Shown: positions 1,937 through 29,617 of the stretch, one piece after another
How positions within the stretch are numbered: position 1 is the stretch's first letter
Layout: every line of letters begins with the position of its first letter
Assembly (NCBI RefSeq): GCF_002197845.1
Contig: NZ_NIDE01000020.1
Location: forward strand, 139,460-171,459
Reading direction: 5' to 3'
DNA length: 32,000 bases
Origin: Fimbriiglobus ruber
GTDB lineage: Bacteria > Planctomycetota > Planctomycetia > Gemmatales > Gemmataceae
The notes under the pieces: generated by a model
Databases searched by the model: none
Told to the model about the DNA's origin: nothing
What the model saw: the letters and a program-made list of their open reading frames with translations, nothing else
Translations under genes and position numbers: made by a program

Positions 1937-3865
1937 TCAATCGGCCGGCGGTTCCTCCTTCGGTTTCCGTTTTCGGTCCCATCGCGACGCGACCGCGGGT
2001 CGCACCTTGAGTTCGCGGTACGGGTCGGTCAAGCCTTCGGCCGCCATCAGCCGAGCGTACGCGTACGCCCGTTTCACGGTCATCCGGTTGATGTCCAGTT
2101 CGGCGGCGATCTCGTTGAGGCTCGCGTCCGGGCGGGCCGCCTTGGCCGCCAGGCACGCCGGCAGGTGACGGACGTGGACGGGCGGTTGGAACAGGTCGAG
2201 CGTCGTCGACGCCTCGAACGGCGGCTCCCCGGGGGCCGCCCAGGCGTCGAACCGGAGGGTGATCGTGGCCCGGGGCCGGATCGCCGGGCGGTCGAGTTGT
2301 TGGACCGGGCGGATGACGAAGACCGGGAGCAACCGCCGCAGGATCTCGGCGAACTCCGCGGAGGTCTCGGCCATTCGCTCGATCGCTTCGTCCAGGCGGG
2401 CGGCCACGTCGGCGGCCGAGGTGAATTCCCCGGCCGCATCGTGCTCCTCGGCCACCCGGGACCGCTCGCCGCGAGCGGCTTGGAGGGCGTCCTGAACCTC
2501 TTTCAACTCGGTCACCAGCGCCTCGAGTTCCCCGCCCAGGCCGATCGCGGTCGCGAGTCGCTTCGCCCGGACCTCGAGATCCGCGATCTGCCCGTCGAGG
2601 GTGTTCCCGGACTTCTGGCGGCGGCGGCGGTGCCGCCCGAACTCGGCCCAGGCGGCGGCCGCGAGGGTCTCCCGAAACCCCGCCTGGTCGCCGATGATGC
2701 TCATGACCCACGGGATCACGACGGCCCGAACCGTAGCGATGTCGACCTGGACGTGATTCCAGCAACTCCGGGTGCTCCCGGCGAGCGTGTTCTGGCAACG
2801 GAGCAACGTGCCGTACTGATACATCCGGCCGCCGCAACACCCGCACGTCGCGCTCTGGCCCGGCCACCGCGTCCGTTTCCGCGGCTGCCGCCAGAGCGGG
2901 TTCTCTTTGCCCGCCCGCTGCCGCTTCGCCGACGCGGTCCGGCGGGCCTCCACGACCTCCAGGACCGCCGCGTGCTCGTCGGGCGTCAGGTGGCCCAATT
3001 CGGGGTACTCTTTCTCCTCGGGCGGGGCCGGGTTCGGGCACGACCGGTGTTTCCCGGTCCCGTACACCATTTTCGTGATGGTCGTCCGGAACCGCCGCCG
3101 CCCGCTCAGGATCGGGTCGCGGAGCAAGTCCTTGACCGTCCGCCCGGTCCACTGCTCGCGGTCCACGTACGCGCCCGGCGAAACCCCGTCCTGGTTCAAC
3201 CGGTCGGCGACCCGCACGTAACTCCACCCCGCGACCACCCACGCGGCCATCTGGCGGATTGTAGCCGTACAGTCCGGCCGCTTGGCGATCCGCAGGCCGA
3301 CCGGACCGAAGGTCCCGCCGGCCGCCTCCTCCCGGGTCAACTTACGGTACCCGTACTTGATCTTGAGGACCATTCCGCCGTGGGCGAACGACGACGTCGC
3401 CTTCCGCCGCACCCGCTGCCGCGCCTCCGGCACCGTCATCCCGTGCCGCAGCGACGCCGTGTGCATCATGACTTCCCAGTTCACGTCGGCCGTGTCAATG
3501 TTGTCGGCGAGCGACACGAACCGGACATCGGCGTCCAGGCACGCCTGGACGAAGCCCCACTGCATGCGGGGGTTCCGGTAGATCTCCCGCAGCTCGGTCA
3601 CGAGGACCAGGTCCCAGTCTCCGGACGTGACGAGTTCGTCGGCCTCGACCATCGTCTGCCGGTCGACGACCCAGCCACTGGCCTGCTCGCCCAACCGCCG
3701 GATCTCGGTCGGACCCGCGTACACCCGCTGTAACCACCGCTCCGCGTCCTCGTGTTGCGAGGTGATACTCGCCATGTCTTGACCGGGGGTCGAGATGCGG
3801 CCCGGGATGATCACCCGTAGGACTTTGTCGGTGCCCCGGGGGACGAGAGGTGTTCCGAGATTCAT
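1937..3865 (-). CDS. Large serine recombinase (resolvase N-terminus, recombinase domain, zinc ribbon, C-terminal HTH-like segment)
   Basis: Starts MNLGTPLVPRG... at ATG 3865 with GAAAGGAGGT ribosome-binding site just upstream. Contains VIIPGRISTPGQDMASITSQ, GYRKLTREE...ADRLNQDGVSP, CGCCGGRMYQYGTLLRCQNT..C and SLNEIAAELDINRMTVKRAY. Confidence 0.88.
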   Translation of the reverse strand: MNLGTPLVPRGTDKVLRVIIPGRISTPGQDMASITSQHEDAERWLQRVYAGPTEIRRLGEQASGWVVDRQTMVEADELVTSGDWDLVLVTELREIYRNPRMQWGFVQACLDADVRFVSLADNIDTADVNWEVMMHTASLRHGMTVPEARQRVRRKATSSFAHGGMVLKIKYGYRKLTREEAAGGTFGPVGLRIAKRPDCTATIRQMAAWVVAGWSYVRVADRLNQDGVSPGAYVDREQWTGRTVKDLLRDPILSGRRRFRTTITKMVYGTGKHRSCPNPAPPEEKEYPELGHLTPDEHAAVLEVVEARRTASAKRQRAGKENPLWRQPRKRTRWPGQSATCGCCGGRMYQYGTLLRCQNTLAGSTRSCWNHVQVDIATVRAVVIPWVMSIIGDQAGFRETLAAAAWAEFGRHRRRRQKSGNTLDGQIADLEVRAKRLATAIGLGGELEALVTELKEVQDALQAARGERSRVAEEHDAAGEFTSAADVAARLDEAIERMAETSAEFAEILRRLLPVFVIRPVQQLDRPAIRPRATITLRFDAWAAPGEPPFEASTTLDLFQPPVHVRHLPACLAAKAARPDASLNEIAAELDINRMTVKRAYAYARLMAAEGLTDPYRELKVRPAVASRWDRKRKPKEEPPAD

Positions 3866-5217
3866 CGGGCACCTCCTTTCGCGACCCCGGCGGCCCAGGC
3901 GAGCGACGCCGGCCACCGCCGCAGGGCGGCCTCGATCTGCCCCCGCTGGGTCTCCGGTCGGGTGTGCGTGTAATTCGCCGTCATCCCCAGCCCCCCGCCC
4001 GGCGGCCGGTGGCCGAGGGTAATCTGGCGGACCAGGGGGTCGACGTTGGCGTCCTGTAGGAGCGTCGCGAACGTGTGCCGCCACGATTTCGGGCACGTCG
4101 CGTCGGGGCGGCCGAGGGCGGCCATCGTTCGTACGAACGACGCGCGGACATCGTCCGCCCGGACCGCCCCCGCGTCCTTCCAGACAGATCGCGCGACCCG
4201 CAGGGCGTCCGCCCGGGACGCCCCCGATCCGCTGCCCTCTTGCCGCTGGAGGCAGACCCGTTCCAGCTCGCGGTGGTCGCCGCTCAGAGCCGGGGTGGTC
4301 CCGCGCTCGAACGACTCCCGGAGGAAGACCGGACCGGACCGCCGGGGGCCGATCACCCGCCGGAGGACGGCCACCCCCTCGGGGAGAACCGGGACGGACC
4401 GCTCCGACCCCGTCTTGATCCGCCACCCGAGGGCGGTTTTGTTCCGGACGTGCAACCACCCGGCCGCAAGGTCCAGGTCCTCAATGAGCAAGTGGGTCAA
4501 CTCGCCGACCCGGAGCCCGGTCTTGGCCAGCGTGAAATGAATCGGCCCGGCCCACGGGGACGCGGACATCAGGAACGCCAACTCAGTGGCCGCATCGAAC
4601 ACGAAAATCGGTTTCGCATCGGTGATCGTCATCCGGTCGAGCGGGAGTTCGGCGAATGGGTTGCCGGCATACGGCGGCAGGTGCCGCCGCTTGGCCGCGA
4701 ACGCGTACATCGCTCGGCACGTTTCCAGAATAAATTGGACGCCCTTGTCGCGGAGTCGCCTTCGGGCGGTGTTCGGGTGCCCGTTCGGGGCAACCTCGAC
4801 CACCCGCAGGTGGGCGACGAAGCGGTCGGGGTTGACATCGTGGGCCAGCGGCGGGCGGGGTTGGCGGGCGGCGAAGTCGGCCAGGTGACGGGTGGCCGCG
4901 CGATACCGGGTGACGGTCGCCAGCGAGGAGTTGAGAACGTGTTCGTGGTAGATGAGGAATTCGTCCCGCAGCGCCGCCACGCTGACCGGGGTGAACGCCA
5001 ACAGGGTCGGGGCGCCGGCCGCCAACTGGGCGTTGACCTGGGCGGCCACCCGGACGGCCTCGTCCTTCGTCGCGGCGACTTTCCGGCGGACCGGCCGCCC
5101 GGCGTCGCGGTAGTACACCCACCACGCGCCGTGGTGGAAATAGACGGACACCCGGCCGACGCGGTGCCGAGCCGGCCGACCCTTCTTGCGAGACGACACG
5201 ATCACACTCCCGTGCAC
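3862..5217 (-). CDS. Tyrosine recombinase/integrase (GTG start; an alternative GTG lies just downstream)
   Basis: TGLRVGELTHLLIEDLD, SWRHTFATLLQDANVDPLVRQITLGH, ANYTHTRPET. Stop TGA overlaps the ATG of the serine recombinase (ATGA). Confidence 0.9.
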   Translation of the reverse strand: MHGSVIVSSRKKGRPARHRVGRVSVYFHHGAWWVYYRDAGRPVRRKVAATKDEAVRVAAQVNAQLAAGAPTLLAFTPVSVAALRDEFLIYHEHVLNSSLATVTRYRAATRHLADFAARQPRPPLAHDVNPDRFVAHLRVVEVAPNGHPNTARRRLRDKGVQFILETCRAMYAFAAKRRHLPPYAGNPFAELPLDRMTITDAKPIFVFDAATELAFLMSASPWAGPIHFTLAKTGLRVGELTHLLIEDLDLAAGWLHVRNKTALGWRIKTGSERSVPVLPEGVAVLRRVIGPRRSGPVFLRESFERGTTPALSGDHRELERVCLQRQEGSGSGASRADALRVARSVWKDAGAVRADDVRASFVRTMAALGRPDATCPKSWRHTFATLLQDANVDPLVRQITLGHRPPGGGLGMTANYTHTRPETQRGQIEAALRRWPASLAWAAGVAKGGAR

Positions 5218-5240
5218 CGAATGTGCACCGAATGTGCACC
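5212..5240. repeat. 11-bp tandem direct repeat GTGCACCGAAT, 2.6 copies
   Basis: gtgcaccgaat|gtgcaccgaat|gtgcacc; each unit carries the palindrome GTGCAC. Confidence 0.9.
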
Positions 5241-5264
5241 AGAGACGTGTCGATGACGGAGGGA

Positions 5265-5276
5265 AAATGACGCAAG
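5265..5276. repeat. 12-bp AAATGACGCAAG, left arm of an inverted repeat flanking tRNA-Ser
   Basis: Exact reverse complement of 5437..5448 (CTTGCGTCATTT). Confidence 0.7.
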
Positions 5277-5320
5277 CGATTGGAATTTATCGGCTTACGT
5301 CACGCGAACAGAAAATGAAA

Positions 5321-5408
5321 CGGAGAGGGAGGGATTCGAACCCTCGGTAAGGACAAGCCCTACTCCGGTTTTCAAGACCGGCCCATTAAACCACTCTGGC
5401 ACCTCTCC
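5321..5408 (-). tRNA. tRNA-Ser(UGA)
   Basis: RC reads GGAGAGG TGCCAGAGTGG...GGTCTTGAAAACC...AGGGTTCGAATCCCT CCCTCTCC G. 7-bp acceptor stem, anticodon TGA, discriminator G, long variable arm, no encoded CCA. Confidence 0.93.
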
Positions 5409-5436
5409 AAATATTGATCTCCTTACGTGTCAACAT

Positions 5437-5448
5437 CTTGCGTCATTT
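5437..5448. repeat. 12-bp CTTGCGTCATTT, right arm of the inverted repeat flanking tRNA-Ser
   Basis: Exact reverse complement of 5265..5276; overlaps the stop codon of the second integrase. Confidence 0.7.
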
Positions 5449-6591
5449 GCTCGGATCCTCACTTGTTACTGTTTCGAACGTATGGCAAACCCGTGGCAAA
5501 CCGGAACTAATTGGCTCCACTGGGGCATTGTACATCCCCAGGAAGGCGTCGGTGAGACGGATCTGATCGTTTTGCAGGGCGTGACCGTAGACCCGCAGGA
5601 CCATCGACGGGTCGGAGTGCCCGAGGCGGCGGGCCACGCTCAGAACGTTGGCGCCGCTCGACATAAGGAGGGTGGCTCCTGTGTGGCGCAGTTCGCCCGG
5701 CACCCATCCCTTCAGGCCGGCGGCTGCGGCCAGCACCTTCCACTGCGAAACGAGTCCGTAGTAGGAGATGTGGCCGCGAGACGTACCGGGGAAGATCCAA
5801 TCGGTCGACTTGCAGACCTTGCGGTAGGTGTCCAAAGCCGTAATCGTCGGCATAGTCAGCGGGACGGTACGCCGGCTGAATTCGTTTTTCAGCCCCTTCA
5901 CCTCTCCAGTCTCGGGGCAGATGGCTCTCACGATTTTGATTTGCCGGCCGTCGTAGTCTTCCCAGCGGAGGGCGATCAGTTCTCGGGGTCGCGTACAGCA
6001 CTCCACCCCGAGCCGGACGATGATTCCGAAGTGCGGCCGTTTGGCGAAATCGTCGGCGACTTTCACGAGGCCGACGAACTGCTCCAATGTGAGCGATCGC
6101 CGTTTCGCCCGAACCACCTTCGGGGGCGTGATTTTATCGAGCGTCGAATTCGGTAACGTGGGATGGGAGCGGAGTATCTTCGAGAGCGTGGAGAACGCGC
6201 GGTGCCGCTGGTCGGCGGACTTGCCGGCCTTCATCATGCTCGTCAGCCACTTGCGTACCTTCGCGGCCAGCTCGACATGATCAGCGACGAGACACTTCGC
6301 CAGGTCGGGACGTATCAGCGACTCAATCACTTCCTTGTCTCGGCCGACCGTCTTGGCCTCTACCTGCGTCTCTTGAATCGCAATCCATTCGTCCAGCCAT
6401 TCCCCGAGCGTACCCGAATCCTTTGGCCGGTCGACGTGCTCGCGGATCCACGCCAGGGCATCCGTCTTCCGGTCGAATACCTTGGATCGGCCTGGACCGT
6501 TCGGCCCCGGGAGTTTCGCGCGGAACTGGCCGTCGCCATGCGGTAGGGCAGACCCTTCACCTTGCCCGCGGGAGCCTTTTTTTTTGGCCAC
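5443..6591 (-). CDS. Phage-type tyrosine integrase
   Basis: CCTRPRELIALRWEDYDG, GELRHTGATLLMSSGANVLSVARRLGHSDPSMVLRVYGH; located 35 bp from tRNA-Ser. Confidence 0.93.
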   Translation of the reverse strand: MAKKKGSRGQGEGSALPHGDGQFRAKLPGPNGPGRSKVFDRKTDALAWIREHVDRPKDSGTLGEWLDEWIAIQETQVEAKTVGRDKEVIESLIRPDLAKCLVADHVELAAKVRKWLTSMMKAGKSADQRHRAFSTLSKILRSHPTLPNSTLDKITPPKVVRAKRRSLTLEQFVGLVKVADDFAKRPHFGIIVRLGVECCTRPRELIALRWEDYDGRQIKIVRAICPETGEVKGLKNEFSRRTVPLTMPTITALDTYRKVCKSTDWIFPGTSRGHISYYGLVSQWKVLAAAAGLKGWVPGELRHTGATLLMSSGANVLSVARRLGHSDPSMVLRVYGHALQNDQIRLTDAFLGMYNAPVEPISSGLPRVCHTFETVTSEDPSK

Positions 6592-16186: not shown

Positions 16187-16639
16187 GTGAACGAAGAGGC
16201 CGCGTTCAACGCGTGGCTCGACGCCAACCCGCACGACTCGGTGGCCCGGGGCGCGTACGCCGACTGGCTCCGGGAACAGGATGACCCGAGATGCGACTGG
16301 TACGAGCTGGCAAGTCGGACAGGGCGGGTGCCGACAAACAGCGGGCACAAACCTTCCGTTTGGTTTCGCTGGTATTGGTTGGAAATCATGGCAGAGTCGC
16401 CACTGTTTAAATTCGTTGAACACTGCAGGCTGCCTTGGGAATTTCTGCAAAATGACCAAATTCATCTGAGCACTTTTATTTCTCGTCAAGCCGCGGAAGA
16501 CGCCTGTGCCAACGCCTTCGCCTCCCTCCCCGCCGAGGGCCAGGCCGCCGTGGAAGCGGAGATTCGGGGTATTGGGAGCGGACGCGGGGAACTCAGGGGG
16601 TGCAGACGTGAGCGAATAGGAGCGGCTACCACTGACTGA
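16187..16639 (+). CDS. TIGR02996-like domain protein (GTG start)
   Basis: NEEAAFNAWLDANPHDSVARGAYADWLREQDDPR; 3' end converges on and overlaps the phoH-like gene by 14 bp. Confidence 0.6.
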   Translation: MNEEAAFNAWLDANPHDSVARGAYADWLREQDDPRCDWYELASRTGRVPTNSGHKPSVWFRWYWLEIMAESPLFKFVEHCRLPWEFLQNDQIHLSTFISRQAAEDACANAFASLPAEGQAAVEAEIRGIGSGRGELRGCRRERIGAATTD

Positions 16640-17357
16640 CCACCTGCTGGACCAGCGGGCTCCGCACGATGTCCGCCGGTCCCAACCGCACGTGACCCAT
16701 GAGGCCGCCCCGCAGACGCTCCACGGCCCGCGGGAGGCCCGGCAACAACCTCGCGGGCAAGTCGGTTTGTTCCAGATCCCCGGTAACAATAACCCGCGTG
16801 CCGTCGCCGGGTCGCGTGAGCAGCATGAACATCTGCTGCTCCGTCGCGTTCTGCCCCTCGTCCAGAATCACGCACGCACCTCGCAGCGTCGACCCCCGCA
16901 GGTATTGGAGCGGGGAGATTATCACCTGCCGCGACTCAATCAGCCGGTCCATTGCCGCCCCCGTCTCATCTCCCAGATACTCGCAGAGGGCGTCGAGGAG
17001 CGGGGCGAAGTACGGGCCGACCTTCTCGCCGAGATCCCCCTTGTGGTAGCCCAATTCGCCGCCACACGTCACAGTTGGGCGGACGAGTACGATGCGGCGA
17101 ATCTCGCCCCGTTGGAGTTGCTGGAGGGCGTGCGATGCCGCAAGGAACGTCTTGCCCGTGCCGGCCGGTCCGGTGACGAATAGGAGTTGATAATCGGGGT
17201 TGCGGAGGGCGGCTAAATAGGGCCGTTGGCCGGGGGTTCGGGCCGTCAATTGCGGAAGTGGCTTTGGCTGAGCTGCGGGGGCGATTTTAGGGGCTTTTGA
17301 CTTCCGCGGTGGGCGGGGCATGGGTGGTCGCCGTGGGGTGGGCGGGACTCTCGACAC
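16626..17357 (-). CDS. PhoH-like ATPase
   Basis: YQLLFVTGPAGTGKTFLAASHAL (Walker A), CVILDEGQNATEQQMFMLLTRPGDGTRVIVTGDLEQTDLP. Confidence 0.9.
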   Translation of the reverse strand: MSRVPPTPRRPPMPRPPRKSKAPKIAPAAQPKPLPQLTARTPGQRPYLAALRNPDYQLLFVTGPAGTGKTFLAASHALQQLQRGEIRRIVLVRPTVTCGGELGYHKGDLGEKVGPYFAPLLDALCEYLGDETGAAMDRLIESRQVIISPLQYLRGSTLRGACVILDEGQNATEQQMFMLLTRPGDGTRVIVTGDLEQTDLPARLLPGLPRAVERLRGGLMGHVRLGPADIVRSPLVQQVVSQW

Positions 17358-18079: not shown

Positions 18080-18307
18080 CTACCCTCGCGCCAAGAACCC
18101 CTTCACCGCGACATTGATCGGCATCACTATCCCGTTTAATCGGCACGGCTCGTTGCCATCTCGCTGGCCGCCGAACTCCAGGGTCTTCACCGTGGCGCCG
18201 TCGATCCCGGGGCGGTGCGTGATCGTGAACGAGTCCTCGCCGTAGTAGCCGAGGTCGTTGGCCGCGGTGACGAAGGCGGTCAGCGGGACGATGAGGCGGT
18301 CTTCCAT
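18080..18307 (-). CDS. Small hypothetical protein
   Basis: MEDRLIVPLTAFVTAANDLGYYGEDSFTITHRPG... Confidence 0.5.
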   Translation of the reverse strand: MEDRLIVPLTAFVTAANDLGYYGEDSFTITHRPGIDGATVKTLEFGGQRDGNEPCRLNGIVMPINVAVKGFLARG

Positions 18308-18325: not shown

Positions 18326-18988
18326 TTACGCGGCGGAGGTATCCATCGCGTTGACAATGGTCATCCCGTCCGGCCGAATCCGGATCACTTGGCCACGGAT
18401 CATGGTTCCGGATTCTCTGAACCCGTCGGCACGACTGTAAGTGATGCTCAGTACGTCGTCTTGCGCCTTGCCGAGCATTCCCATGATTTGGCCGTAATCC
18501 AGGAACAGGCTGTTCCATTTCACAAGGCGGCCGTTGAGCCGGATTTCATATTCTTGGGGCTTCGGAACGGCGGCCTGCATCACGGCACCCGGCATGGCGA
18601 CGCCTTCCAGTTTCGCGCTCAGCGACTGTCCGATGTCTGACCAGTCCACATATGGTCGCTTCCCGACAGCGTGAACTAGTGGGCACCCGTAAGCCGCATC
18701 GTCGATGTAAACTTGTGCGTACGCCTTCGGTGAGTCGGTCCAGGACTTTTGCAGCGGATTCACGTTGACCGCCCAGAACTCCAGGCCTTGTGACCGACAG
18801 TATTCGACTGCATCGCTAAGCGGGTTCGTACCGTCATCGCGACCGTCGCTCCGCATCGTCCACAAGATCAACGTGGCGCCCAGACTCTGGAGATGTAGGA
18901 GTGTTTCGATCGCCTTGGGAACGGGAGCCCCGACTCTTGGGAATTCGTGTTCCACGATTGTGCCGTCGAAATCAACGCAAATGATCAC
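18326..18988 (-). CDS. HAD-like phosphatase fused to a C-terminal multiubiquitin-like beta-grasp domain (GTG start likely)
   Basis: HAD: IICVDFDGTIVEHEFPRVGAPVPKAIETLLHLQSLGATLILWTMRSD...YIDDAAYGCPL. C-terminal: YEIRLNGRLVKWNSLFLDYGQIMGMLGKAQDDVLSITYSRADGFRESGTMIRGQVIRIRPDGMTIVNAMDTSAA. Confidence 0.65.
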   Translation of the reverse strand: MIICVDFDGTIVEHEFPRVGAPVPKAIETLLHLQSLGATLILWTMRSDGRDDGTNPLSDAVEYCRSQGLEFWAVNVNPLQKSWTDSPKAYAQVYIDDAAYGCPLVHAVGKRPYVDWSDIGQSLSAKLEGVAMPGAVMQAAVPKPQEYEIRLNGRLVKWNSLFLDYGQIMGMLGKAQDDVLSITYSRADGFRESGTMIRGQVIRIRPDGMTIVNAMDTSAA

Positions 18989-19079
18989 GGGGTATTCCGG
19001 TAAGAGGTAAGGGGCAAGTTTGGGGAGCCTCCGTGCTCCCCGGGTCCGCGCCCCGGGCGACAAAGGGCGCGGGAGCGAA

Positions 19080-19460: not shown

Positions 19461-20651
19461 CTACGGCTTCAGGACCGGGGTGTACCCGCCCGGGACGGTC
19501 ACGGTTTTCTTGTCGAGGTCGATGGTGATGGACCCGGCGGCCGGGGTCGGCGGATTGGGAGCCGGGGGCACGGGTGGAACCGGCGGGGTAGGGCCGGGCG
19601 GCACAGGAGCCGTCCCGTTAATCTTCGCCCACGCCGCCGCGTAACCGATCTGGGCCGAGTTGCGGGCGATCCGCATGCAACCCTTCTCGCCCCAGGACTC
19701 GTTCCAATGGTTTTGCATGATCCAGCACGGAGGGGAAGTCGTATCGTCCCATCCGAGCAGGTTGACGGCGTGGTCCACGTCGCCAGCGGTCAGCGGCGGG
19801 CCGGTGAAAATCCCACTGGAGTAGGCCATGAAATTATCGTCTGCCGCCACGCAGACCGAGATTTGCCCATAGGCCAGAATCGCATCCTTGACGCTCTGCT
19901 CATCCGGAATCGTGGAATCGCTGCCGACGTACCCATGCGCATCGATCTTGTGGGTTCCTGCCGCCCCGCTGCACTGGCCGACCGCGCCGTTGTAGGGCGA
20001 CTGGGTCGCGTCGTTGTCGGTGTTCCCGAGCAACCATTCCATTACGTCGGACGGGAACCCACCGTCGCAACCGCCCGTGTTCGAACACGCCAGCGTGTGG
20101 GCGTAGGACCATGTCACCGTGTTCTTGACTCCGGCCTTCTTCTCAGCCGACATACAGGCCTTGTCTGCCGAGAAGTTGTAGCAGTCGCCGCACTGCATCT
20201 GATCATCAACATCTGTCGCAAAGCCGAGCGGCCGAATGTCGTATTGGGCTTGCGTGGCTCGCGGCAGGACGGGCCGGTAAGGGGCTTTCGCCTTGATCCG
20301 CTCGTGCAAGTTCGCGGGCAGTTTCAAGCCCTTGACGGACCTGGAAGCGGCCTTGAACGACTCCTTGCCGATCTGGTGGTTTGTGAACCCGGCCTTCAGG
20401 TGAATCTCGTGGCTCAGGGCTTCGAGCTGGGCCACCTTGTCGAACACGGGCGACCGCTTCGTCTTGAATTTGTGGCCGTTGGACTTCAGGTGGGCGTCGA
20501 TCGCCGCGAGGCGGGCATCGGCCGGATGAGTCTTCGCAGCGGCGGCCACGGCCGGAGGAGTCACCAGGTTGCTCACAGTCGCTGCGGACACCGCCGCAAT
20601 GACGACCGCGATCGCGCTGATGCCGATCAATAGGTAGGAAACTTTTCGCAA
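19461..20651 (-). CDS. Papain-like (C1A) cysteine protease with N-terminal membrane segment (TTG start proposed)
   Basis: DVDDQMQCGDCYNFSADKACMS (Cys), DVDHAVNLLGWDD (His), CWIMQNHWNESWGEKGCMRIAR (Asn); YLLIGISAIAVVIAAVSAATV near the N-terminus. Confidence 0.85.
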   Translation of the reverse strand: MRKVSYLLIGISAIAVVIAAVSAATVSNLVTPPAVAAAAKTHPADARLAAIDAHLKSNGHKFKTKRSPVFDKVAQLEALSHEIHLKAGFTNHQIGKESFKAASRSVKGLKLPANLHERIKAKAPYRPVLPRATQAQYDIRPLGFATDVDDQMQCGDCYNFSADKACMSAEKKAGVKNTVTWSYAHTLACSNTGGCDGGFPSDVMEWLLGNTDNDATQSPYNGAVGQCSGAAGTHKIDAHGYVGSDSTIPDEQSVKDAILAYGQISVCVAADDNFMAYSSGIFTGPPLTAGDVDHAVNLLGWDDTTSPPCWIMQNHWNESWGEKGCMRIARNSAQIGYAAAWAKINGTAPVPPGPTPPVPPVPPAPNPPTPAAGSITIDLDKKTVTVPGGYTPVLKP

Positions 20652-20680
20652 AGTCGCACTCCGAACAGGTAAAGGGTCTC

Positions 20681-21127
20681 TCACTTTTTCGCCACCAACC
20701 GCGGCTTCCGCCGCTCCAACTCGTTCGGCACGTCGCTCGCGTATAGCGGCATGATCTGCCACAGTGGGATCTCGTCGGGGGTCAGCATCCCCGCCGCCCG
20801 CAACTCATCCTCAAGAACCCGCCGCCGGTCGCACGCATCCCAGAACCGCGTCGCATGTTCCGGGAGCCGTTCCCGCCCGCACATCGCCATCCATGCCGAC
20901 AACCGCACCCCGCCGTCTACGAGCCACGGGCACCGACCTGCCGCGATCCGCCCCGCCCGGTAGGCCCGCTCCGGGTCGTCGCTCACGTCCAACGCCGCGG
21001 CCAGGGTGCCCAGCGGGGAGGAGCGGAGGCGGGCGTCGGCCCGGTCCCTGACGGTCCAGTTGGGGGACGCGAGGGCGGAGAGGCTGGGGCCGTAGAGGAT
21101 GGCGAGGAGGAGGCGGGCGAGGATCAC
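20681..21127 (-). CDS. Putative exported hypothetical protein
   Basis: MILARLLLAILYGPSLSALASPNWTVRDRADARLRSSPLG... Confidence 0.55.
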   Translation of the reverse strand: MILARLLLAILYGPSLSALASPNWTVRDRADARLRSSPLGTLAAALDVSDDPERAYRAGRIAAGRCPWLVDGGVRLSAWMAMCGRERLPEHATRFWDACDRRRVLEDELRAAGMLTPDEIPLWQIMPLYASDVPNELERRKPRLVAKK

Positions 21128-29008: not shown

Positions 29009-29617
29009 CTACCGCTCCCCGTCGTCCGTCATGTGCTCCCTGAGCATCCCCACCGCCTCGCCCATCAACTGATCCACTCGCCCCTGCGTCAGTCCCATGA
29101 TCGTCGCCGTCGTCTTCTTGCTGGCCGGGTCGCCACCGATGCCGGCCCGCAGTTTCACGACCGTTCGATGCGGCTCCGGGAGATATCGAACTGCCTCGCG
29201 CAACTGAACCATCTCCCCCGCCGCGTCCAGCTCCGCTTCGCCGCTCGCCCGCTGGTCGGCTAGCCCTTCCCACCCGTCGTCGTCGTCCTTCGTCTCGACA
29301 AACTGTTTGCCTGTTCGATCGTAGAACCTGACCAGTTCGACGATGGCCCCGCGGATAAACTTTGCCGCGTAGGTGTCGACCGTCTCGCCCCACCCCGGCT
29401 GCCAAGTCGCCGCCGCCTCGCACACCGCCTGAAGCACCGCCGCATTGACTTCGTCCCGCCGAAAGTGCCAGTGCGGGGCGTAGACCATTGCCGCGACCTT
29501 GGGTGCCAGCATCTTCAGAATGGCCAGCGGCTCGGGATAGCGGCGGTAGAAGTCCAAGACGAGCTGTTGCTGGTGCTCGCTGAGGGTCGGCGTGGGGCGT
29601 GGCGGGGGCGTGTCCAC
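29009..29617 (-). CDS. Sigma-70-like / phage sigma-like protein
   Basis: FIRGAIVELVRFYDR (region 2-like), VRYLPEPHRTVVKLRAGIGG...TATIMGLTQGRVDQLMGEAVGMLREHM (region 4-like). Confidence 0.6.
   Translation of the reverse strand: MDTPPPRPTPTLSEHQQQLVLDFYRRYPEPLAILKMLAPKVAAMVYAPHWHFRRDEVNAAVLQAVCEAAATWQPGWGETVDTYAAKFIRGAIVELVRFYDRTGKQFVETKDDDDGWEGLADQRASGEAELDAAGEMVQLREAVRYLPEPHRTVVKLRAGIGGDPASKKTTATIMGLTQGRVDQLMGEAVGMLREHMTDDGER

Follow-up and report, generated by a model that had tools for sequence, protein, structure and literature searches.

A gene of the planctomycete Fimbriiglobus ruber is predicted to encode a phosphatase of the HAD superfamily joined to a ubiquitin-like (Ubl) domain of the BubA type. 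The gene, referred to here as HAD-Ubl, was found in a 32,000-nucleotide stretch of contig NZ_NIDE01000020.1 (the window), where it occupies positions 18326..18988 on the minus strand and encodes 220 amino acids (aa). Judged from sequence, residues 1-128 are a predicted intact capless HAD phosphatase of the BT0820 kind, and the gene sits on an integrated phage-like element. By four independent tests, one of which uses a structural model, residues 147-220 are a predicted homolog of the C-terminal (conjugated) domain of type II BubA, a protein of the Bub systems. In bacteria, the Bub and Bil systems have lately been recognised as the counterparts of ubiquitination. The Ubl domain is tentatively read as a handle that docks on, or jams, Bub-type machinery encoded in trans, and a probability of roughly 40% is given to this reading.

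The BubA-type (Multi_ubiq-like) beta-grasp Ubl domain (18329..18550, minus strand) was assigned with Pfam, a BubA hidden Markov model (HMM), hhalign, and AlphaFold combined with Foldseek. The sole Pfam match of the domain alone is Multi_ubiq (PF14452; profile positions 1-61 of 69, E 0.0024, 18.4 bits). A tblastn search of 7.3 Gb of plasmid sequence gave only two matches at E values up to 10, and the better one is an Adhaeribacter "multiubiquitin domain-containing protein" (BubA) encoded in a WYL-multiubiquitin-ThiF-DUF6527 operon. BubA proteins were sampled from eight type II Bub operons of plasmids and from 80 of genomes that were located via the BubBD gene (loci L005-L092). The C-terminal 80 residues of 77 BubA proteins were made into an HMM, which was run unfiltered against all 1065 six-frame open reading frames (ORFs) of the window and four comparison loci (L001-L004). 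It matched only the HAD-Ubl ORF (27.2 bits, E 2e-7) and the ORF of its one homolog, P0123 (39.7 bits, E 2.5e-11). The two-sequence profile of these Ubl domains aligned in hhalign with seven BubA C-terminal domains at a probability of 98.2% (E 4e-14).

For the Ubl domain and its one homolog, AlphaFold2 predicted a beta-beta-alpha-beta-beta-beta-beta topology with a predicted local distance difference test score (pLDDT) of 81.8. The full-length model contains the same Ubl fold (pLDDT 70-85) behind a low-confidence linker stretch. In a Foldseek search of PDB, ranks 1-5, 7, 9 and 10 were occupied by the multi-ubiquitin/BubA structures 9cd2, 9d5a, 9d59, 9ea8_B (BubA residues 155-229), 9d5b and 8u38, at a probability of 1.00 and with TM-scores of 0.56-0.68 on the query. 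A profile search of PDB sequences likewise had only one full-domain, non-repeat match, to the third beta-grasp domain of 9cd2 (E 0.032). Beta-trefoil designer proteins stood at the top of the PDB sequence search and were rejected, since they share only the short word "GQ-LRI-PDG", repeated three times. The viral structure library BFVD gave no significant match. The best alignments of the domain are to the C-terminal, conjugated domain of BubA, with which it shares the beta-grasp fold, the NG hairpin, the (V/I)TY strand, the xxG loops and the DGM motif. A first-pass annotation of the window, made by a model from the sequence, had proposed a multiubiquitin-type beta-grasp domain fused to a HAD module. 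The proposal is borne out by profile, profile-profile and fold evidence, and similarity to a ubiquitin-like fold was found both by profile search and by AlphaFold with Foldseek.

The Ubl domain stands at the extreme C-terminus of the protein and ends, after its last strand, in a free four-residue tail, TSAA (18329..18340, minus strand). In a MAFFT alignment (A6) the C-termini of the Ubl and BubA domains are flush, and the tail is in register with the T-x-x-S of type II BubA. Two columns of this alignment are invariant, the Asn of the N-terminal "NG" motif (N11) and the Thr at -3 (fourth from the end), and the Asn at -7 (eighth from the end) of the Ubl domain is common to most BubA proteins. 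In 78 of the 80 genomic loci, Ser is the last residue encoded by the type II BubA gene that lies upstream of BubBD (55 tails read ...TDKS), and Thr at -3 is almost invariant among these tails. Among the eight plasmid BubA proteins, the last four residues are TDKS, TSRS or TGES. The flush ends, Asn -7 and Thr -3 indicate that the predicted Ubl domain keeps the geometry of a conjugatable BubA tail, with the terminal Ser replaced by Ala and the BubA-type basic residue at -1 (mostly Lys) lost. The last tail residues have a low pLDDT in the AlphaFold model. The lack of a C-terminal GG, pointed out in the first-pass annotation, is real but carries little weight against a relationship to BubA, since type II BubA also lacks GG. 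In type I BubA, cleavage leaves Gly229 at the C-terminus (PMC11601596), and the conserved C-terminal Gly that is the only terminus mentioned in the Bub preprints consulted applies to type I. A reading of TSAA as a ClpXP-type "AA" degron was set aside because it leaves the BubA register unexplained.

Relatives of the Ubl domain were sought in libraries built from approximately 15 billion proteins. These searches comprised word-indexed searches of 5.8 billion clusters, one using just the domain and one the two-sequence profile, and an exhaustive phmmer search of 1.84 billion cluster representatives. The only true matches are P0121, which is the same gene as HAD-Ubl, and P0123. Four other phmmer matches were rejected as repeat proteins (Big_7, DUF1542, Tudor and TPR) that were reached via stretches of low complexity. 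No further members of this Ubl subfamily came from pattern scans of IMG/VR, GTDB genomes and JGI metagenomes. P0123 has 131 aa and carries an N-terminal hydrophobic membrane helix in place of the phosphatase, followed by a Ubl domain that is 44-48% identical to that of HAD-Ubl. The last octet, NAMDTSAA, is identical in the two proteins. P0123 matches Multi_ubiq of Pfam with 24.2 bits (E 3.9e-5).

P0123 is encoded on a 58.8-kb contig (L001), of which the readable 16 kb are phage-like, with many small co-oriented genes. These include genes for a DHH phosphoesterase (phrog_4771, E 2e-73), a DNA polymerase exonuclease subunit and Lar. Just downstream of the DHH phosphoesterase gene (L001 4262-6252), the P0123 gene lies between a gene for a MazG-like nucleoside triphosphate pyrophosphohydrolase (phrog_4856), immediately upstream, and a DUF4326/phrog_464 gene. 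The neighbours of P0123 suggest a nucleotide-metabolism setting. A comparison of synteny found nothing in common between the window and this locus but the Ubl domain.

The first-pass annotation had noted that E1, E2 and JAB proteins are missing around HAD-Ubl, and the searches agree with it. A Pfam scan of 41 window ORFs (HAD-Ubl included) gave no match to ThiF, E2, JAB or DUF6527, and tblastn and HMM searches with BubBD and BubE against all window ORFs of at least 40 aa gave nothing below E 0.5. The BubBD and BubE search of the 16-kb stretch around P0123 likewise found no E1, E2 or peptidase. This result bears on the possibility that the protein is a genuine conjugatable modifier, whose C-terminal Ala a trans-encoded, Bub- or Cap2-like E1 would adenylate and whose whole phosphatase would become covalently attached to targets, comparable to the conjugation of cGAS in type II CBASS. 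The C-terminal position of the Ubl domain, the exact BubA length of its tail, Thr -3 and the small last residue all fit a modifier, as does a tail that is identical over eight residues between homologs only about 45% identical. The best alignments are, moreover, to the very domain of BubA that is conjugated; BubA tolerates diverse N-terminal domains (PMC11601603), and a C-terminal Ala can be used by bacterial E1 enzymes (PMC10097602). However, the enzymes themselves are lacking from the 32-kb window and from the readable 16 kb of the homolog, the terminal Ser and the basic -1 residue are both replaced, and the membrane anchoring of P0123 is awkward for a diffusible modifier. A genuine modifier is considered unlikely.

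Another account is that the beta-grasp domain is a generic interaction or regulatory module that binds a partner outside the Bub systems (for instance a substrate protein from phage or host, or the attached phosphatase), in the manner of integral Ubl domains such as that of UBLCP1. The Ubl domain stands behind an enzyme in one protein and behind a membrane helix in the other, two N-terminal parts that are unrelated, as is typical of an adaptor; conjugation machinery was not found nearby, and the low-confidence linker of the model suggests two independent domains. On this account neither the tail's exact BubA register nor its perfect conservation is explained, integral Ubl domains usually lie elsewhere than at the extreme C-terminus, and no candidate partner is evident. 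In UBLCP1, the FCP/SCP phosphatase belongs to the HAD superfamily, and its Ubl domain is N-terminal (the reverse order) and of the ubiquitin type, in contrast to the BubA type. UBLCP1 is a precedent for a Ubl domain joined to a HAD-family phosphatase, with the Ubl domain docking the enzyme on the proteasome subunit Rpn1 (PMC5451543). The likeness is one of analogy only and implies no homology between the fusions; the HAD module of HAD-Ubl is BT0820-like and not of the FCP/SCP subfamily. The generic module is possible but doubtful.

The HAD module (residues 1-128; 18605..18988, minus strand) was recognised with NF046079, phrog_1238 and the sequence and fold of PDB entry 2OBB. It contains motif I, DFDGT (residues 6-10; 18959-18973), motif II, WTMRS (residues 43-47; 18848-18862), motif III, SPKAY (residues 86-90; 18719-18733), and motif IV, YIDDAA (residues 94-99; 18692-18709), all on the minus strand. 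Residues D6, D8, T10, T44, K88 and D96-D97 are invariant or nearly so among 37 aligned sequences (HAD-Ubl and 36 homologs), and the DFDGT, WTMRS and YIDDAA motifs on which the HAD module had originally been recognised thus fall at such positions. The module matches NCBIfam NF046079 ("BT0820 family HAD-type phosphatase") with an E value of 4e-26 and 91.9 bits, which is below the 165-bit equivalog cut-off and places it in a related subfamily, not among the equivalogs of NF046079. It also matches phrog_1238 (E 4e-28) and the sequence of 2OBB (BT_0820; E 1e-17). In Foldseek, 2OBB was matched with an E value of 3e-9, a TM-score on the target of 0.79 and 40% identity over the alignment. The structural neighbours that follow it, HisB-N, GmhB, a phage arabinose-1,5-bisphosphate phosphatase and the 3'-phosphatase of T4 PNKP, are all capless HAD enzymes. 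The AlphaFold pLDDT exceeds 90 over most of the module, with a low-confidence loop at about residues 82-86.

The family to which the module belongs has 4663 homologs, and those listed are mostly stand-alone proteins of about 135 aa. A second domain is absent from all 120 listed homologs (128-187 aa). The family is present in 249 phage records, where it is usually labelled "hypothetical protein" and otherwise, doubtfully, "phosphoheptose isomerase". No paper on the substrate or function of the BT0820 family was found in a literature search. The closest relative (67% identity) is encoded at locus L002, which shares a C1 peptidase and an integrase with the window and lacks the Ubl domain. This relative indicates that the Ubl domain was added in the F. 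ruber HAD lineage. No separate Ubl gene was found downstream of the stand-alone HAD genes of L002-L004, and other HAD homologs likewise occur in phage-like contexts. The combination of HAD and Ubl was not found elsewhere, and the fusion has been seen once.

A singleton of this kind raises the question of an accidental fusion or an annotation artefact, in which separate HAD and small Ubl genes were joined by stop loss or sequencing error and the fusion has no function, the Ubl domain perhaps being made from an internal start. The ORF list and its translation give a complete gene of 220 codons, with a GTG start at 18988 and a stop codon at 18326-18328. The longest form of the ORF begins at a TTG codon at 19063. 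The N-termini of 36 homologs (MIIAVDFDGT) align at GTG 18988, which makes this codon the likely start in preference to TTG 19063. The frame is uninterrupted, with neither a stop nor a frameshift between the two modules. The GC contents of third and second codon positions (GC3/GC2) are 0.67/0.44 in the HAD part and 0.71/0.41 in the Ubl part, so that GC3 is high and GC2 low throughout, and the ORFs that overlap the gene in other frames lack this coding signature. The uniform signature and the absence of a stop indicate that both modules are read in one frame.

The two modules are joined by a linker (residues 129-146, GVAMPGAVMQAAVPKPQE; 18551..18604, minus strand) with a pLDDT below 50 at residues 135-142 of the full-length model. 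It contains two in-frame ATG codons (M132 and M137), and a Shine-Dalgarno-like GGAAGG lies 7 nucleotides upstream of the first (window 18593-18608, minus strand). This internal start favours an accidental fusion, as does the fact that stand-alone HAD homologs terminate within the linker stretch or just before it; so do the single occurrence of the fusion and the lack of the domain in the 120 listed homologs. Public annotation offers only FRUB_10230 of F. ruber (107 aa; window 18326-18649), which is 100% identical to the C-terminal part of the protein. The full-length product was not found in the 5.8-billion-cluster collection, where the best full-length match is 67% identical; the fusion is thus so far unannotated, and public sets hold only the 107-aa fragment. 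FRUB_10230 could be taken as a sign of a separate Ubl gene, but it begins at Val114, inside the HAD domain, and is therefore a truncation by gene calling and no evidence for such a gene. The intact frame with its uniform coding signature and the retention of every invariant residue in the HAD part also speak against an accident. Even with separate genes, an orphan BubA-like Ubl domain on a phage-like element would remain. An accident of fusion or annotation is distinctly improbable. A further ORF of 75 aa (18080-18307, minus strand; GC3 0.88) begins 18 nucleotides downstream of the HAD-Ubl stop and has no match in Pfam, PHROGs, NCBIfam or PADLOC. The HAD-Ubl protein and its neighbours are also without a match in PADLOC.

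The preferred reading remains that of an orphan handle for Bub-type machinery. The exact BubA register, the perfectly conserved tail and the two unrelated N-terminal parts suggest that the partner is an enzyme that reads BubA tails, such as BubE or an E1 through its adenylation site. The machinery (the E2-E1 protein BubBD, the peptidase BubE or their targets) would be encoded elsewhere, probably by the host. The Ubl domain would dock the phosphatase onto this machinery or its substrates, or would occupy the E1 as a poor or non-transferable substrate. Either way, the mobile element would modulate or blunt a ubiquitination-like stress or defence pathway of the host, and the phosphatase would act as the attached effector. 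In a Cap2 substrate, a change of the terminal Gly to Ala raised the E1 thioester and reduced transfer (PMC10097602), so that a "sticky substrate" decoy is plausible on chemical grounds. Genomes of at least 568 species contain Bub E2-E1 genes, metagenome-assembled genomes of Planctomycetaceae among them, and Bub enzyme genes are often located on mobile elements. A complete BubA-BubBD-BubE operon was observed in the viral or proviral IMG/VR sequence UViG_3300021477_000244 (L093 4769-6490), and Bub systems thus do travel on phage-like elements.

Several points weigh against the orphan handle. The PF14452 score of the domain (18.4 bits) is below the gathering threshold of 24.5 bits. Without the basic -1 residue, the tail might go unrecognised by Bub enzymes. 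The singleton fusion could have arisen recently, when a stop codon was lost without selective consequence, and a separately translated Ubl protein (about 89 aa, from M132) is conceivable. It is not obvious why a decoy should require a phosphatase or be anchored in a membrane. No Gemmataceae are present among the 80 BubBD loci listed, and no Bub partner of HAD-Ubl was identified in the search within the 32-kb window. Bub operons have so far been without a demonstrated anti-phage phenotype (PMC11601596).

A bolder form of the idea is that the phage-like element encodes a BubA mimic that is actually loaded by the Bub-type E1-E2 of the host. The Ser-to-Ala change would then stall these enzymes, or the attached phosphatase (in the homolog, the membrane anchor) would be covalently delivered to targets. 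Such a mimic is rather unlikely. If it stalls the enzymes, it would be the first viral antagonist of a bacterial ubiquitination-like pathway; if it is delivered, host conjugation would be hijacked to place an enzyme. In both cases P0123, with its tail NAMDTSAA, would be the second member of a phage "orphan Ubl" family. A limited literature search turned up no viral counter-measure to Bub or Bil.

HAD-Ubl shares with type II BubA of the Bub ("6E", DUF6527) operons the extreme C-terminal position of the beta-grasp domain and the tail length, along with Asn -7 and Thr -3. Unlike BubA, it ends in Ala (neither the Ser of type II nor the Gly of type I), lacks the basic -1 residue, does not lie beside BubBD or BubE, and is located on a phage-like element and not in a defence operon. 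A variable N-terminal domain with one beta-grasp domain behind it is a known layout of BubA proteins (PMC11601603). The N-terminal partners reported for BubA are N/G-rich tails, coiled coils and DUF1508, whereas that of HAD-Ubl is an enzyme. The HAD module resembles the BT0820 family (NF046079, 2OBB, phrog_1238) in its capless Rossmann-like core, in motifs I-IV and in its wide distribution among phages; the listed relatives of that family differ in being stand-alone proteins without a C-terminal domain. In type II CBASS the enzyme cGAS is itself the substrate of the E1-E2 protein Cap2, as HAD-Ubl would be if it were a genuine modifier, and the C-terminal residue can be Ala (PMC10097602). CD-NTases, however, have no beta-grasp handle and share their operon with the Cap2 and Cap3 genes, neither of which is present in the HAD-Ubl window.

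Both domain families and the layout of an N-terminal domain with one beta-grasp domain are thus already known. New are an enzyme in the N-terminal place, the lack of operon partners, carriage by a phage-like element and an Ala terminus common to the only two members. To our knowledge, this would be the first reported prokaryotic example of the logic of eukaryotic UBLCP1, a Ubl domain combined with a HAD phosphatase. The targets and biological role of Bub systems are still unknown (PMC11601596). An orphan BubA-like domain may serve as bait for an E1, E2 or peptidase that recognises its tail, and the Ala-ended tail is a direct probe of the importance of the terminal Ser for oxyester chemistry. 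In this way HAD-Ubl offers a testable route into the biology of Bub systems and into the possibility that viruses interfere with ubiquitin-like conjugation in bacteria.

The first-pass annotation had offered a phage mimic or decoy, or a domain that targets the phosphatase to substrates, as possible roles, and the setting fits the mention of phage: HAD-Ubl lies in an integrated phage-like island, and its only Ubl homolog in a phage-like contig. The left part of the window contains tyrosine integrase genes at 3862-5217 and 5443-6591 (both on the minus strand), with a tRNA-Ser(tga) gene (5320-5409, minus strand) between them. A gene for a serine recombinase of 840 aa (1937-4459, minus strand) adjoins this region. 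The content of the window at 1937-6591 suggests tandem or nested integrated elements at one tRNA. At about 5 kb the GC content drops to about 0.61, from about 0.70-0.74 before it. Rightward of the integrases the genes are mostly orphans, alongside one that resembles an HTH_3 repressor, and tail-fibre and phrog families are matched weakly. At 16626-17357 on the minus strand lies the gene for a PhoH-like ATPase (Pfam E 3.5e-61). The tRNA-Ser, the integrases, the HTH repressor, PhoH and the drop in GC mark the carrier of HAD-Ubl as an integrated phage-like element of F. ruber. Region 4 of sigma-70 is present in a protein encoded at 29009-29617 (minus strand; phrog_351, RNA polymerase sigma factor). 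The gene at 19461-20762 (minus strand) codes for a papain-family (Peptidase_C1) protein that has a membrane helix at its N-terminus and a C-terminal region rich in Pro. The Peptidase_C1 gene accompanies the HAD gene in L002 (547-2379) as well as here, and the two peptidases are 39% identical.

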